Source: Octopus vulgaris (taxonomy: Eukaryota). From it: a DNA stretch of 64,000 nt. A program made the translations under genes and the position numbers. The notes beneath the pieces were generated by a model. It was not told the DNA's origin. It ran no database searches and was given only the letters and a program-made list of their open reading frames with translations. Below are positions 8,483-53,948 of the stretch, piece after piece. The DNA lies in contig OX597823.1 in assembly GCA_951406725.2 (NCBI GenBank), forward strand, positions 27,590,001-27,654,000, given 5' to 3'. Position 1 is the stretch's first letter, and each line of letters starts with the position of its first letter.

Positions 8483-8568
8483 GTAGGTCCCGGGTTGATT
8501 CGGGGTTAACCACAGTAAGTAAGGTACTCAATACATAGCAGAGTAAAATTAATTTATTATATAGAAGG

Positions 8569-8619
8569 AGCTTCTACAGGACTAGTACTGTTTCATTCAA
8601 GAGAAATCTTCAGGAAGCT
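8569..8619 (-). ncRNA. Type I hammerhead ribozyme motif
   Basis: Minus strand: AGCTTC-CTGAAGA-tTTC tctt GAAt-GAA-ACAG tactagtc CTGT-A-GAAGCT. Stem I 6 bp, stem III 4 bp, GUA cleavage triplet. Confidence 0.8.
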
Positions 8620-9016
8620 ATTTAACAAGAATTGCATTAGCATTTATACATTTAGGCAGGTTTTAAGGAGTGGTGGTGGGGGACTTTTTTGGGGGTAGGC
8701 ATAGCGCAAAATATAATACTTGGGGGAGTGGTCAAGGAGTCAGTGGTAGGTTAGATGAAAGAATAGATAAATAAAAAAATAAAAAATAAAATAAAAAAGT
8801 AAAAATAAAATAAAATAAAATAAAAAAATAAAAAAATAAAAAAATAAAAAAATAAAAAAATAAAAAAATAAAAAATATATATAAAAAATATATATATAAA
8901 AAAATATATATATAAAAAAAAAAAAAAAAAAGGGGGGGATAGAGTTATAGGTAAATAAGGAGATTCTCACTTATACCTATACACATATGTATACGTATCT
9001 ACACACACATATATAT

Positions 9017-9061
<45 letters not shown>

Positions 9062-9352
9062 CACACATACATACATATCTACATACACACATACATACAC
9101 CCGCCCACATATACAAATTTATACACATGCACATGCATATACCTGTCTACACATACACACACGTATATATGCATACACTCACTCCCATGCATGCACGCAT
9201 ACACACATGTATATATATACCCACGACCACACATACATATATACACAGAAAAATATATATTCATACGCACATACACTCATGCACACACAACACACCTAGT
9301 TCCCTATATACACATATTTACACCTATATATACATACACCCACATACACATA

Positions 9353-9429
<77 letters not shown>

Positions 9430-9434
9430 ATGTA

Positions 9435-9474
<40 letters not shown>

Positions 9475-9594
9475 TATGTGTATGTGGGTGTATGTATATA
9501 TAGGTGTAAATATGTGTATATAGGGAACTATATACACATATAGGGAACTATATATGTGTATATATGTATATATATATGTATATATGTATATGTA

Positions 9595-9644
<50 letters not shown>

Positions 9645-9949
9645 TATGTGTATGTGGGTGTATGTATATATAGGTGTAAATATGTGTATATAGGGAACTA
9701 GGTGTGTTGTGTGTGCATGAGTGTATGTGCGTATGAATATATATTTTTCTGTGTATATATGTATGTGTGGTCGTGGGTATATATATACATGTGTGTATGC
9801 GTGCATGCATGGGAGTGAGTGTATGCATATATACGTGTGTGTATGTGTAGACAGGTATATGCATGTGCATGTGTATAAATTTGTATATGTGGGCGGGTGT
9901 ATGTATGTGTGTATGTAGATATGTATGTATGTGTGTATATATGTATATG

Positions 9950-9984
<35 letters not shown>

Positions 9985-10364
9985 ATATATATGTGTGTGT
10001 AGATACGTATACATATGTGTATAGGTATAAGTGAGAATCTCCTTATTTACCTATAACTCTATCCCCCCCCACTTTTTTTTTTTTTTATATATATATATTT
10101 TTTTATATATATTTTTTTTATATATATTTTTTATTTTCTTATTTTTTTATTTTTTTATTTTTTTATTTTTTTATTTTATTTTATTTTTTTACTTTTTTAT
10201 TTTATTTTTTTATATTTTTTTATTTATCTATTCTTTCATCTAACCTACCACTGACTCCTTGACCACTCCCCCAAGTATGATATGCCTACCCCCAAAAAAG
10301 TCCCCCACCACCACTCCTTTAAACCTGCCTAAATGTATAAATGCTAATACAATTCTTGTTAAAT

Positions 10365-10415
10365 AGCTTCCTGAAGATTTCTCTTGAATGAAACAGTACT
10401 AGTCCTGTAGAAGCT
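10365..10415 (+). ncRNA. Type I hammerhead ribozyme motif
   Basis: Same sequence as the 8569-8619 motif, on the plus strand. Predicted cleavage after A10409. Confidence 0.8.
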
Positions 10416-10430
10416 CCTTCTATATAATAA

Positions 10431-10469
<39 letters not shown>

Positions 10470-24518: not shown

Positions 24519-25093
24519 TAATAGCGGTAATGATAATATTTCTTACATGAGTGGGGGAGGGTATAAGGTACCTGGAGAAAGACCTAATGTAAAGTTGATA
24601 GTTGTTTTATCAACGTTGAAGGGATGAAAGGCAAATTCCATCTCAAGGAGGGACAACTAAATATTGTCCACATGATTACAGTAATGATAACGATGATGGC
24701 AGTAATCTTGATGATGATGATGATGACAGTGGGGCATGGAGATGGTAATGATGATGAGAAGGGAGAGGAGGAGAAAAGAGGATAAAGAGGACAGTATATA
24801 GTGATAATGATGACAGTGGTGATGATGTTGGTGGTGGTGGTGGCGGCAGTGGTGTGATGACAATAATGGTGATGATGGTGGGGGGGGGGGGGGGCACGGT
24901 GACTGTGATTATGGTGAGTCCTTAATGCTTTTTTAATCTTTCCTGCCAAATTGTTTCCTCTTCTGTAAAATACAATGCCTGGGGTTATCTTGGGAGGTGG
25001 GGGACCCATAATATGGTGGCCAAGCAACTAAGATGACAATGGGAGCAGGGGTGGGGCTGGGGCTGGTTTCTTAGCAACAGCAGATTGACTGGG

Positions 25094-25557
25094 TAGTAGT
25101 AGTAATAGTAGTTGTAGTAGTAGTAGTAGCAGCAGCAGCAGTAATAGCAGCAGCAGAAGTAGCAGTAAAGGTAGTATTAGTGGCAGTAAAGGTAGCAGGA
25201 GCAGGAGTAGCAGTAAAGGTAGTAGTAGTAGTAGTAGTAGTAGCAGCAGCAGTAATAGCAGCAGCAGAAGTGACAGTAAAGGTAGTATTAGTGGCAGTAA
25301 AGGTAGCAGTAGCAGGAGTAGCAGTAAAGGTAGTAGTAGTAGTAGTAGTAGTAGTAGCAGCAGCAGTAATAGCAGCAGCAGAAGTGACAGTAAAGGTAGT
25401 ATTAGTGGCAGTAAAGGTAGCAGTAGCAGGAGGAGCAGTAAAGGTAGTAGTAGTAGAAGTAGTAGTAGTAGCAGCAGCAGTAATAGCAGCAGCAGAAGTG
25501 ACAGTAAAGGTAGTATTAGTGGCAGTAAAGGTAGCAGTAGCAGGAGTAGCAGTAAAG

Positions 25558-25588
<31 letters not shown>

Positions 25589-25790
25589 CAGCAGCAGCAG
25601 TAATAGCAGCAGCAGAAGTGACAGTAAAGGTAGTATTAGTGGCAGTAAAGGTAGCAGTAGCAGGAGTAGCAGTAAAGGTAGTAGTAGTAGTAGTAATAGC
25701 AGCAGAAGTGGCAGTAAAGGTAGTATTAGTGGCAGTAAAGGTAGCAGTAGTAACAGCAGCAGCAGCAGGAGTAGCAGTAGTAGTGATTGT
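25094..25790 (+). repeat. Higher-order minisatellite (~117-123 bp unit built from GTA/GCA triplets, about 5.5 copies)
   Basis: Unit gcagcagtaatagcagcagcagaagtgacagtaaaggtagtattagtggcagtaaaggt... is repeated. Confidence 0.9.
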
Positions 25791-43587: not shown

Positions 43588-43748
43588 TACTTTATTTAAA
43601 GCAGCAGAAAATTCAACAAAACCTGTTTCTCTGAGTAACAGGTTTTGTTGAATTTTCTGCTGCTTTAAATAAAGCATATTACTCTACCACTGGTATTTGA
43701 GTACTCTTTTTTCCACCTTGTTTCACATTTATGTATTTACTCCGGTAT
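43588..43748 (+). mobile_element. Internally deleted copy of HHR family 2
   Basis: Hairpin ...aaagcagcagaaaattcaacaaaacctgtt/aacaggttttgttgaattttctgctgcttt. It retains only ctctgaGTAacagg of the ribozyme, plus a tail homologous to 18652-18720. Confidence 0.7.
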
Positions 43749-48027: not shown

Positions 48028-48672
48028 TAGGGGTATAGGTGATGGTACAGACTGGGGGTATAGGTGATGATACAGACTGGGGGTATAGGAGATGATATAG
48101 ACTGGGGGTATAGGTGATGATATAGTCTTGGGGTATAGATGATATAGACTGGGGGTGTAGGTGATGATATACACTGGGAGTAAGGGTGATGATATAGACT
48201 GGGGGTAAGGGTGATGATATAGACTGGGTGTAAGGGTGATGATATAGACTAGGGGTAAGGGTGATAATATAAACTGGGGGTATAGGAGATGATATAGACT
48301 GGGGGTATAGGAGTTGATATAGACTGGGGGTATAGGAGATGATATAGACTGGGGGTATAGGAGTTGATATAGACTGGGGGTATAGGAGTTGATATAGACT
48401 GGGGGTATAGGTGATGATATCGACTGGGGGTATAGGTGATGATATAGACTGGGGGTAAGGGTGATGATATAGACTGGGGGTATAAGAGATGATATAGACT
48501 GGGGGTATAAGAGATGATATAGACTGGGGGTATAAGAGATGATATAGACAGAGGGTGTAGGTAATGATCTAGACTGGGGGTATAGGTGATGATATCGACT
48601 GGGAGTATAGGTGATGATATAGACTGGGGGTAAGAGTGATGATATAGAGTGGCGGTATAGGTGATGATATAA
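48028..48672. repeat. 24-25 bp G-rich minisatellite (gactgggggtataggtgatgatata)n
   Basis: About 26 copies, estimated from length and unit size. Confidence 0.92.
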
Positions 48673-50533
48673 CCCCCACCCAAGTACTGAACTGGTGTAT
48701 TATTTTAACCTGGAAAATCGGTGCAGCATCAGACACAATTCTTTTGATATTTAGTTTCATCTCTCTAAGTTCTGAGACTAGTGTCATTAGTTACAGCTTT
48801 TTAACTGGTTAGTCGGTCAGTCCTTGGTTCATCATATTTCTGACTAATGACAATGGAACATCAATGATTCAGTAGGCTTGGTTGCAAGACTATCAGATTT
48901 CCACCAATTTGTATTTATACATGACAAGCTACTACAGAGTTTTACAAGGTGCAAGTCAACCTGAATCTATGGGAAAAGATACTTGCCTAAGGCGCTGACG
49001 GTGGGAAATAACTCAGAACCGGGTGATTCTGAAGCAAACTTGATATCAGAATATTTTAGCGGGGCATGAGAACAATTGAATAAATATGGGTGCAGCCATG
49101 CCCCCTATCTATACCCATTAAAAACAATTGTGACCTTCTACATATTTTAGAAACCATCGTTTTTTGATTATATGTATACGGAGATTTAAAGGGGATAATC
49201 TTTGGATGAAAATATGAGCGTATAACTGAGACGAGTGACTTGCTTGTCATCTAGACAGGAGGGAGGGTGGGCAGTGTTTATAGTGTATACACAGAGAGAC
49301 AGACAGACTGACAAAGAGAAAAAGAGAGTGTTAATGGTCATTTAATCGTAGACCGTTCGGTAGCATTTTGTTACTGCAGAGACTCTGGACAGGACAAACT
49401 GAACACTTAATTCACAAACGTTCCAGTAGGACCACCCGGGATTTTCTTCCTTTTTAAAAAAACATTGTATATCTCAGATTATGTAATCTAACGGGTTCGC
49501 TTTTGTTTTAAAAAACGATGCTAAGGGAAATTTGGCAGCTGTTTCAAGCGACCACGTAGAACTTCCCAGAGTTGACTCGTGAAGTTATGAATGTGAGACG
49601 AGCGAAAGATTCCAGTTCATCCAAGTACACTGGCAGACATACAACTGTGTAGAAGGGATATAGTGACAGTTCAAAAGCAGAGTTATAAATTAGAATACAT
49701 TTAAATAGACAGGTAGATTTCTTAAATCATTACGTACAACTTCAGGGTCCCTATTCGTTTAGGTTTGGTATCAAAAACTTACGAATCATTAAACATGATG
49801 AAGAAAGAAAGAAAGAAAGAAAAAGAAAACGATAATTTACTTACTGGAGTAGAACAAGGGAACGTAAAATATTTAGATATCGAATCAAGATGTGGTCGGT
49901 ACACATAAACACATATAAACACATATACATAAATACATATATATATATATAGCAAATCAAAAGAACATCGCTGTTTTCCAAACTCTTTTTACAACTTGCA
50001 GTTTTTTGTTTTCTCTTTCCTTCTTAACATAGAACGCTCGCTCTATTTATTCCTCCGTCCTCTTTTCCTTGTTTCTCTGTTCCATTTCTTTTACTCTCTT
50101 CATATCCAGTTACTGCTTTTGTTTTGTTTTGTTTGGTGTTGTTTAATATTATTTTCACTATCCCTTATGTTTATGCATTAGTGCACCGCTTTCGTTTGAT
50201 AACTTAGATGTTCCGTCTGTTCAACCTCAGTATATATATGTATGTGAGTGGCATATATATATACATATATACATATATATATATACACACACTCACACAC
50301 GCACGCACTAAGGTAGGGAGTGAGGGTGCGATGTGGTGTTACTTATTAGTATTTGTTTATGATGATCGCAATGAAAACAGTGGCAAATGTACTGACGATG
50401 CAGTGGGTGGTTATAAGAATCCTTAAATTCGACAGGTAACAAGAGTAGTACTGTAAATCTCTATTATGCTCCACAGACTGCTGTGTACATCTACTAACTT
50501 CGGTAATACGGGGAATCAGGCATGACTATGAAG

Positions 50534-50800: not shown

Positions 50801-51089
50801 GTCAGCTTTCTAGGTGTTTTTCTGACTGTGACCAACCGCTATTGCGCTGAGTCCATGATTGCTTGGTACGAAGTTTGTCTCCCAACCATATGGTTTCCGA
50901 TTCAGTCGCAATGCGTGGCACTTTGTGCAAGTGTCTTCTGCTACAGCCCCAAACCGAGCAAAGCCCTATTAATTGACGTCGTAGACAGAAACTGAAAGAA
51001 GTTCGTCGCGCGTGTGTGTGTATGTGCCGTTTGTAGAAAAACATAAATCTAGAGAAGAAGCACACTCTAAGATGTAGAGCAGCTAATAT

Positions 51090-51292
51090 TATAATGAGGG
51101 AAGCCGGTTTATGGGGTTACTCTGGTTTTCCCGTCCATAAGGGGTTTGGTCAGACCCCAAACTTGTTGGCCAAAGACCTCTTCAAAATATTTTGAAAAGT
51201 TCTTAGGCCAACAGGTTTGGGGTCTGACGATACGCCGTAAGACCAAACTCCTTATGAATGGGAATCCCCATAAACCGGCCTCCCTCGTTATA

Positions 51293-51295
<3 letters not shown>
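51090..51295. mobile_element. Palindromic MITE (relatives at 51630-51740 and 51820-52155)
   Basis: gagggaagccggtttatgggg...ccccataaaccggcctccctc, with an inner hairpin cagaccccaaac/gtttggggtctg. Confidence 0.65.
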
Positions 51296-51350
<55 letters not shown>

Positions 51351-51355
<5 letters not shown>

Positions 51356-51547
51356 ATAAAAGGAGCTTCTACAGTACTAGAACTGTTTCATTCAGATGAA
51401 ATCTTCAGGAAGCCAGCTTCCTGAAGATTTCATCTGAATGAAACAGTTCTAGTACTGTAGAAGCTCCTTCTATAAAATAAATTACTTTACTCTGCAATGT
51501 ATTGAGTACCTTATTTACTGTGGTTTACCCCGACTCAACCCGGGACC

Positions 51548-51550
<3 letters not shown>
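51351..51550. mobile_element. Compact paired-HHR element (same family as 8484-10432)
   Basis: Minus HHR at 51364-51413 and plus HHR at 51415-51465, back to back, followed by a tail ending cccgggacctac. It sits in (TA)n. Confidence 0.85.
51415..51465 (+). ncRNA. Type I hammerhead ribozyme motif
   Basis: AGCTTC-CTGAAGA-tTTC atct GAAt-GAA-ACAG ttctagta CTGT-A-GAAGCT. Confidence 0.8.
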
Positions 51551-51582
<32 letters not shown>

Positions 51583-53948
51583 CGTTTGTAAAAAAACATA
51601 AATCCGAAAGAAGAAGCACACTCTAAGATGAGGTCTTCGGCCAACAATTTTGGGGATCTGACGATACGCGATAAAGCTAAACCCTTTATGGACGTGAAAC
51701 CTAAGGTATTCCCATAAACCGTCCTTTCCTATTTTTAGTATATATATAAATATATCGTCTTTAAAATACATAAATCCGAAAGAAGAGGCACACTCTAAGG
51801 TGTAGAGCAGTATACATCAAAAATGGAGAAGGCCGATTTATAGGATTACCTTAGGTTTCGCATCCCTAAAGGGTTTTGTTCTATGGAGTATCGTCAGAGC
51901 CCTAAACCTGTTGGCCCTAGATCTCTTAAAAATATCTTCGTTGGAAGGCGTGGATATATTGTTAGTGGAGTAGCCGAGGTCACATAGTTCCAAATTTATG
52001 AAAGATACGTTGTTTCTGTAAATATGTATAAGCGCAGCCTACTGATCAGCTATTTAACATATTTTTAAGAGGTCTTGGGTCTACAGGTTTTGGGATGAGC
52101 CTTTTATAGACGGGAAACCTAAGGTAATCCCATAAACTGGCCATCCCCATTTTTAATATGTATATGTGTGTGTAAAAAAAAATAAAATCCACAAATACAC
52201 ACACACATACATGCATACATACATATGTACGTATGTATTATATATATATTGATATACAAAATCGAACGCGCACACACAAGTCATGCGTGCCGTCAGCTCG
52301 TGGGTCGGCCGCGACCCTTTGGCCTAAGAGAAGCCTAATGGCCGCAGCCGACCCACGAGCTGACGATACGCATGCCTTGTGTATGTGTTTTCGATTGTGC
52401 TTATAAGCCTCGAGCTGCTTCTAATTCATATTTGAATGTGTGTGTGTACGTGTGTTCTCCCCCATCACTTGGCAACTGGTGTTATCGTGTTTATATCCCC
52501 GTAACTCAACGGTTCGGTAAATGGAACCGACAGAATAAGATCTAAAAAATACAAGTAAGTACTGAAGGTCGATTTGTGCGAGTAAATTCTGAAGGCGATA
52601 CCCCAGCATGGCCGCAATCCAATGACTGAAACAAGTAAAAGAACAAAAGAATTAAACTGAAATGCGCAAACCATCCCAGCAGTTAAAAGATGCAAAGTAC
52701 GGAGGTTAATTGGAAAGTATTCAAATATAGACGTGGATTTTCATACGTTATTTTTAGTAGATTTTGCAACACGCCATCACAATCTGGGAAACTTAATCTT
52801 CACAGAAATAACTGAAGGAGAAACTATATTTTCTCATAAAAATATAGCTTCTATCGTTTCCATTGCATTATTTTCACAAAACTTAATTACCGTGATCCTA
52901 ACAAACTAAGGCTTCTGTTCCTACATTTGGGTCTCACGTATTAGATATTAGACATTTAATAATGTATGGGTGACCTTTTTCAAGAAGCGGACTCCATGAG
53001 ATATGGCTTATTGCAAGGCGGGCCGCACTACTAAAATAAATTTCCGTAAGTGCGCCATTCAGAGAATCCTACTGGCCGCTGTTTGCCCATGATTGCTGTA
53101 AGGGGTTACAAGAAATTTACTCGGAGCCATTCAACACGCCAGACACCTGTCTATACTATTTCAGAAAACCGAGGCAAACGTTATCGCCCCAGTTTTCTCT
53201 ATCACCATCGCTAATGGCCCCTTATATTATTATCAACAACAGATCCTTCTTCTATTGTGCCGCCCTTTATTTCATTTTCTGGTAACGGTTCAGTTTTATT
53301 GATTTCTCTCTTTTGTATTCAGATTTCTAATAAAATATTTTGCCTGTGTTTCAGTGAAGAAAATAATCAAGATTTTGGTCGAGTTGTTAAAATAATTGTG
53401 GAGGCGCAATGGCCCAGTGGCTAGGGCAGCGGACACTAGCGATCGGAGGATCGCGGTTTCGATTCCTAGACCGGGCTTTGTGTGTGTTTATTGAGCGAAA
53501 GCACCTAAAACCTCTACGAAGCTCCAGCAGGGTGTGGTGGTGACCCCTGTTGTATTTTTTCGCCACAACTTGCTCTCACTATCTCTTCCTGTTTCTTGAG
53601 TAACGCTGCGATGGACTGGTGTCCCGTCCAGCTGGGGGAGGGGCATACGCCACAGAAACCGGCAAACCTGGCCCATGAGCCTGGCTAGGCTTGAAAAAGG
53701 CGACGTTTATCGTTTAAAATAATTAACTTTTGCAATGTTCAGGTTTGTCGTTGCTGTTTAACCCAAGGTCATATCTAATCCAGTAGTCCCACGATGAAAG
53801 ATGCTCTGATTTTTTTTGATTTTTTTATATTTTTATTTCATTTAATTTTATTTTTATACATCAAGTCTATTAATCTGGAATTGGAAATAGAAGTTGACAA
53901 GAGATCCTCATACAAAAACATTAAGAAATGTTTGATTTTAAATATAAA

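Follow-up and report, generated by a model that had tools for sequence, protein, structure and literature searches.

The palindrome at about 51 kb of the 64,000-nt window of Octopus vulgaris DNA analyzed here (positions 27,590,001 to 27,654,000 of contig OX597823.1; coordinates below are those of the window) is almost certainly a pLTR stub of a high-copy Penelope-like element (PLE) with Hydra-clade motifs, and not a standalone element. Taken alone, the 51-kb locus is ordinary repeat debris, and its value lies in the family-wide evidence on the insertion mechanism. That evidence suggests that the stub probably arose when two cDNAs, one primed by each strand of a cut TA repeat, ran off the likely capped 5' end of an uncleaved RNA and were joined head to head.

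Layout of the stub and its parent element

A descriptor scan of the whole window returned exactly four type I hammerhead (HHR) motifs. Two of them lie back to back in the stub, at 51416–51464 on the plus strand (predicted cut between 51459 and 51460) and at 51365–51413 on the minus strand (cut predicted to follow GUA, between 51370 and 51369). Because they are on opposite strands, one RNA carries one HHR plus its antisense. Positions in the element are numbered from the first G of stem I (+1), which puts A(-1) of this copy at 51415 and the predicted cut after +44. The other two motifs, at 8570–8618 (minus strand) and 10366–10414 (plus strand), belong to a second and longer insertion from a different subfamily, each arm of which includes about 0.85 kb of 3' UTR. 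Its tail-bearing long arm occupies 8483–9477 on the minus strand (HHR 8618–8570 and ~0.85 kb of AT-rich 3' UTR), and its inverted, tail-less arm occupies 9520–10432 on the plus strand, where TATAAA (10336–10341) stands 29 nt upstream of A(-1) (10365) and is followed by the HHR at 10366–10414.

The original prediction of an element of about 200 bp with two back-to-back hammerheads and a tail was borne out, with a true extent (51347–51552) slightly wider than claimed. The stub is bordered in the sequence by a (TA)n target, at 51290–51346 on the left and 51553–51580 on the right. The inverted arm without a tail (51347–51413, minus strand) spans element positions +1 to about +67 and ends in a head-to-head junction at 51411–51414. 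On the plus strand follows A(-1) at 51415, the family-wide stop of the cDNA arms and the putative transcription start of the parent, as judged from the tallies of arm ends, palindromes and junction bases. Downstream of the HHR, a spacer (51465–51482, plus strand) leads up to +67, the end point of tail-less arms, which was placed from arm ends and contig loose ends. A 70-nt tail (51483–51552, plus strand) then reaches the second end point, where …CTACAT gives way to the TA repeat. The tail is the onward parental 5' UTR, as seen in three copies that continue into the ORF region (L065, L078 and L079), and includes a TACTC…GAGTA hairpin (51488–51508, plus strand) that is kept in a paralogous family and is a candidate protein-binding site. 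The inversion point had been placed exactly at the 5' edge of stem I; this stood as the family-wide peak, but for the 51-kb copy "exact" had to give way to a doubt of a few bases, given the 3-nt AGC microhomology at 51411–51413 (by comparison with the native upstream sequence of subfamily copies L002–L030) and a sense arm that reaches at least 51414 (-2), with no clear extra G at the junction. The stub is flanked by another repeat (51030–51300 and 51570–52170) that is itself an imperfect inverted repeat with ~70% arm identity. The window also holds a 25-nt tandem array in 20 overlapping registers at 48038–48771 and a trinucleotide-like tandem region at ~24984–25700.

An own-genome search (2.8 Gb) yielded 899 candidates, of which 40 were scored, and the 26-nt tail motif had 5,336 exact genome matches. 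Longer copies (e.g., L033) extend upstream via an AT-rich 3' UTR into an ORF. One partial tandem (L065) contains, in order, HHR, tail, 722-codon ORF, 3' UTR, HHR and tail, with 4.8 kb from HHR to HHR, and this order identifies the tail as the parent's 5' UTR. Partial tandems of this kind (L065, L078 and L079) form pLTRs, and the HHR lies in the pLTR. Among 30 near-full-length ORFs, the intact HHR starts 182–183 nt before the ATG in 25 (24, plus L267 with an inverted arm), and in the remaining five the HHR start was unscored or missing.

The ORF of L065 (P0001), read by eye, carries YRDD of a reverse transcriptase (RT) and a Y-x-C..YIGMT GIY-YIG-like stretch in cis with the repeat. It shares with the Hydra clade of C-terminal EN+ PLEs (PMC8557442) RWR for RWK, DKT, CNCPDKTTC (the CxCX5C linker) and, near the C-terminus, CDLC (CxxC) and CMH (CxH), and a canonical HHR and a (TA)n target are shared as well. 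These motifs point to Hydra-clade membership. The clade is described there as "generally <3 kb", a tendency rather than a diagnostic feature, whereas the octopus unit measures ~4.8 kb, with a long AT-rich 3' UTR and thousands of copies. Atlas neighbours of the ORF, at 0.96–0.97, carry PF01541/PF00078 (GIY-YIG/RVT_1) on 18–77% of members; the ORF gave no RT or GIY-YIG match when its sequence was searched against Pfam and PDB. Another PLE-like ORF with a YIGQTGR-type endonuclease motif was seen at L034:2153-4116, and its BLASTP similarity to the stub-parent family was marginal. Next to a TA repeat, L293 carries a hammerhead-like motif of a third and unrelated type, with CUGACGA, a long stem II and a minimal stem III.

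Arm end points and a putative capped start at A(-1)

Our sample comprised the 90 tail-anchored loci (out of 5,336) that come first along contig C1; they were taken without regard to structure and are not a random draw. Of these, 23 were long (>200 nt upstream) and 67 were short, and 59 of the short copies had an adjacent inverted arm with the 70-nt tail on one side only; stubs with an inverted arm are thus the main class (59/90). A TA-type repeat followed the tail in 79 of the 80 copies with a parsed tail end (10/90 were unparsed); within (TA)n, any target-site duplication would be indistinguishable from the repeat. The 3' ends were fixed, with inverted arms ending at +64 to +67 in 48/59 copies and tails at …CTACAT (about +138). 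Junctions between the arms were very diverse.

The 5' ends of the arms (n = 118, each with a microhomology doubt of a few bases) lay at -1 in 35 cases, upstream in 13 and downstream in 70, and none lay at +43 to +47. Arms run through the cleavage site. Genome-wide, 309 perfect palindromes were centred on AGCT at -1 to +3 (only the CTGAAGA form was counted), compared with 15 centred on the identical AGCT at +47 to +50, 1 among 10 matches exactly on the 6-nt GTTAAC at -8 to -3, and 4 near the cleavage site. These counts indicate that neither microhomology alone nor ribozyme cleavage explains the peak at -1; we rejected the cleavage site as the run-off point (0/118 arm ends and 4 nearby palindromes) and AGCT microhomology alone as the cause (309 versus 15).

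The DNA points to a Pol II start at A(-1), such that the HHR would be the first 50 nt of the mRNA, and to A(-1) as the likely capped 5' end of the element RNA. In each of the 13 distinct long copies, and in every subfamily seen, TATAAA or CATAAA starts 29 nt ahead of A(-1), whereas 13 of the 28 bases upstream of A(-1) vary among five representatives. TATA plus Inr has been proposed in the pLTR of A. vaga Pen2a (PMC3846280, PMC8557442). A TATA box is not a general rule, however: the D. virilis Penelope promoter is internal and TATA-less (PMC2377424).

Natively, T or C stands at -2; nevertheless, 971 matches to G-AGCTTCC were found. Reverse transcriptases can copy a cap as C. Where both arms were complete to -1, G was present on both in 85 loci and on neither in 10, against a random-letter expectation of 1:9. 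At (AT)n-N-AGC junctions without an inverted arm, N was G in 34/46 (7 C, 4 A and 1 T). The other TA-repeat phase told against the capped-start reading, with G in 4/21 and a direct join in 11; pooling of both phases gave G at 38/63 distinct junctions. Non-native, non-palindromic arm ends in the 90-locus sample carried G in 17/23. Many of the G's next to an inverted arm are also readable as microhomology or short templated inserts. Our search of the open-access literature, in main texts only, turned up nothing that ties PLE inversion points to a start site or describes a G derived from a cap.

An unlikely alternative is that the wall at A(-1) is a processed RNA end, either a splice acceptor (YAG at -2 to +1) or a nuclease cut, or an RT stop at the base of stem I, and that the G is an untemplated addition. 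A YAG does stand at -2 to +1 after a pyrimidine-rich stretch in all subfamilies, and untemplated addition of C is known for RTs. In D. virilis, an intron extends up to the 5' end of helix I (PMC4209133). The splice-acceptor reading fits worse because the arms retain the AG that a spliced exon would lose and because, across 30 loci, the sequence ahead of the G is not a constant exon. Furthermore, a branch-point-like motif was found in one subfamily only, whereas the TATA-like box stays in place. As for an RT stop, an enzyme moving 3' to 5' would already have opened stem I on reaching its 5' strand.

A second PLE family (G000; L283–L286 and L303–L332), with ~46% protein identity, many open frames of 727 codons and 5,465 motif matches, has its own stubs and its own HHR at the same place with the core kept; this HHR was found by eye, and the strict HHR descriptor missed the family. 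The TACTC…GAGTA tail hairpin is common to both families (51488–51508; L283) and lies ~25–35 nt after the HHR. Among 30 loci of the second family, 24 end at one 3' base and 16 inverted arms end at another. Arms stopped 14–17 nt before the core in 10/24 short loci, and no arm end was found between -18 and -125. This wall spans 3–4 nt; conservation of the TATA-like box was not seen in this family, nor was an extra G established. In part of the copies, at several loci, CCGA replaces CUGA in the core. The window itself has a match to the tail motif of this family at 43688.

In short-read contigs from four public runs coded as four organisms, loose ends were found at +67 and at the tail end in 4/4 and at -1 in 3/4, indicating that the layout is not peculiar to the Octopus vulgaris assembly. 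As contigs are uninformative on RNA starts, strand and level, they were used for break points only, and depth steps were not read as copy numbers.

Origin of the two arms and relation to known PLEs

Among the 59 copies, the inverted tail-less arm reached further 5' in 18 and the sense tail arm reached further 5' in another 18. Arms that are unequal in either direction cannot be produced by a single fold-back. Fold-back, in which one cDNA or antisense template folds at a short palindrome and extends into a mirror arm, has been proposed for A. vaga PLEs (PMC3846280), and such self-priming on an antisense template misfits the octopus copies, in which the tail-less arm exceeds the arm from which it would have been copied in 18/59. 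It also fits poorly with the 85 loci whose arms are both complete to -1, each arm with its own extra base and with filler between. As the origin of the stubs we consider it quite improbable; the 309 AGCT-centred palindromes and the near-constant agreement of the arms in subfamily, sometimes in the same rare variants, are in its favour, and it may account for part of the perfect palindromes. Arm-to-arm subfamily discordance was found in 9/294 diagnostic cells, several of them at alignment edges, where ~110 would be expected if the arms were independent. The shared subfamily states and the shared rare variant C39A indicate that both arms came from one source element, with which one RNA, two RNAs or later conversion are all compatible. 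Mixed-subfamily arms, considered as a proof of two RNAs, were not found among the sampled loci.

The claim of a minimal two-ribozyme element, made before the Penelope parent had been recognized, was not supported. Junctions vary between copies, the TATA-like box is lost from the stub, and, with the HHRs on opposite strands, an RNA through both 51-kb arms is predicted to form one long hairpin (-111.6 kcal/mol) with a probability of 0.00 for all HHR stems. It is accordingly very improbable that the stub is a non-autonomous mobile unit (MITE- or retrozyme-like) with two ribozymes under selection, for which speak its share of the sampled copies, the 309-fold recurrence of one junction type and the proposal of non-LTR retrozymes as PLE derivatives (10.64898/2026.07.22.740005). 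In that source a non-LTR retrozyme consists of head-to-tail tandem monomers, each with an HHR, whereas the octopus stubs are head-to-head, and head-to-tail monomer arrays were not seen. Private mutations, moreover, fall freely in the core and stems. Long-read assembly artefacts deserve hardly any credence: arm-specific G deletions occur at two HHR positions only in inverted copies (24/283 cells versus 1/945 other G cells) and are unlisted in the public-run contigs, but chimeras would not be expected to have a tail on one side, arms of unequal length, fixed TA junctions and an extra G, and all three break points recur in the independent contigs, one of which has a loose end at an inverted arm. 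The deletions affect G45, the first base past the predicted cut, and G48, in one arm only (L119, L121, L125, L127–L130, L133, L139, L140 and others); they may be either a hairpin sequencing artefact or an RT error at the ribozyme.

According to the two-cDNA mechanism, which we prefer, both strands of a cut (TA)n would prime cDNAs on the front end of the element RNA, and reverse transcription would start internally, ~67 and ~138 nt from the RNA 5' end. Each cDNA would extend to the capped RNA terminus immediately ahead of the HHR and run off there, with the cap copied as C; the two would then be joined through the self-complementary AGCT with which the RNA begins or through a short microhomology. 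Ordinary mRNA would yield stubs only, and long copies would come only from read-through RNAs. HHR cleavage would decap the mRNA, and the templates would be mostly uncleaved RNA. A long outcome is seen at L267, where an inverted arm is joined near +1 to a copy that continues into the ORF. In L1 twin priming, too, both target strands prime and the inverted junction carries microhomology; there the two cDNAs copy adjacent, non-overlapping stretches, whereas in the octopus stubs both copy the same first 67 nt.

Among the closest systems is Poseidon PAc of Anolis, a PLE studied in vitro (PMC11167929): reverse transcription starts at two internal sites that delimit the tail, both strands are cut and extended, HHR cleavage is dispensable, and a dimer is predicted. 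By analogy, the octopus stubs look like the in vivo product of this chemistry acting on a unit mRNA. Two differences stand out: the PAc ORF starts inside the HHR, versus an ATG ~182 nt downstream in octopus, and the PAc start sites are called non-homologous to the target, whereas the octopus end points border TA-like bases (…ATAAAT, …CTACAT).

The inverted pLTR with a one-sided tail, the (TA)n targets and the pLTR hammerheads are already published (PMC8557442, PMC3846280, PMC4209133, PMC6765202, PMC3681739, PMC2377424, 10.64898/2026.07.22.740005). EN+ PLE insertions likewise have a head-to-head inverted copy, a one-sided tail, an AT-rich target, partial tandems and an HHR in the pLTR (PMC8557442, PMC3846280). 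The octopus elements differ from these descriptions in that the insert cut down to ~200 bp is the majority class, the tail is 70 nt compared with the published 30–40, and inversions concentrate at one base, next to which an extra G is found.

Open questions on PLEs in the available literature include the origin of the inverted pLTRs, the need for tandem copies to spread and the role of the hammerhead (PMC8557442, PMC11167929). If the two-cDNA mechanism holds, one rule, that RT starts near the mRNA 5' end, would account for all three, and it would name exact RNA ends and a cap signature that are testable in the existing in vitro system. A further and rather doubtful extension is that in Hydra-clade PLEs the HHR forms the very 5' end of the capped mRNA and acts as both switch and scaffold: the palindromic loop III would pair two RNAs, a protein dimer would use these as templates for priming from the two broken strands, the default product would be a 200-bp stub with a copied cap, and cleavage would decap and remove the template. 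Were this true, the thousands of stubs would be a genomic record of start sites and two-template insertion.

Sequence, predicted fold and variation of the hammerhead

The motif at 51416–51464 shows the core CUGANGA, GAAA, NUH site and three stems of a type I HHR. It consists of a 5-bp stem I plus A-1/U50, CUGAAGA, a 3-bp stem II flanked by U.U, GAAA, a stem III of 4 pairs with a CUAG loop, and a GUA site. Type I architecture, a palindromic loop III, opposite-strand pairs ascribed to truncated PLEs and a low expected activity are shared with published PLE HHRs (PMC4209133), which include opposite-strand pairs 100–700 bp apart in Schistosoma. The octopus motif differs from these in its 4-pair stem III and in a stem II of only 3 pairs that lacks the G10.1-C11.1 closing pair and has U.U there instead; the available text of that paper maps no inversion points. 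An Rfam scan of the window gave 0 hits at the gathering threshold, and no hammerhead family appeared among 45 weak hits at 51300–51600.

In the 51-kb subfamily, the catalytic stem II had a predicted pairing probability of 0.02, with predicted slippage onto the core, which, like the missing G10.1-C11.1 pair, speaks against strong activity. Cofolding indicated that loop III permits a dimer. The HHR is probably a poor self-cleaver aided by dimerization or by a protein, and it is probably under selection in the parent element. Within the stub the HHR is predicted to be unable to fold, with the arms pairing with each other.

Divergence from the 8.5/10.4-kb copies had been described as confined to loops, and our comparison agreed: 5/49 HHR positions differ, 3 of them in loop II (TCTT/ATCT) and 2 in loop III, with none in the core or assigned stems and the CTAG kept. 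A further 7 differences lie within the 87 nt downstream of the HHR. The inference of selection on RNA structure drawn from this pattern applies to active parent lineages and not to the 51-kb copy. Among the sampled loci, variants present in at least 10 loci affect only N7, two positions of loop II and loop III, and a fifth variant, in 4 loci, also lies in loop II. When the cut-off was lowered to 2 loci, four core/stem positions were added (P = 0.036), at least some of which are junction misalignments. Singleton substitutions numbered 16 in the core and stems and 2 in loops, whose expected share is 27% (P = 0.18). With subfamily variants confined to N7 and the loops and singletons even, the loop-only pattern belongs to the active lineages, and inserted copies decay evenly. 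Comparison with the paralogous family by eye, limited to two lineages, revealed compensatory pairs in stem I (CUUC/GAAG, CUGU/ACAG) and stem III.

The loop III variant C39A is carried by both arms of the 51-kb stub. It is rare (9 genome matches) and not a subfamily state, and it lengthens stem III by a U-A pair. A source copy was sought among the 7 other matches, and none was found; these span subfamilies and mostly have the variant in one arm. C39A (51454 and 51375; L333–L339) completes the quasi-palindrome CAGT…ACTG and recurs across subfamilies, often in one arm, perhaps as a templated mutation.
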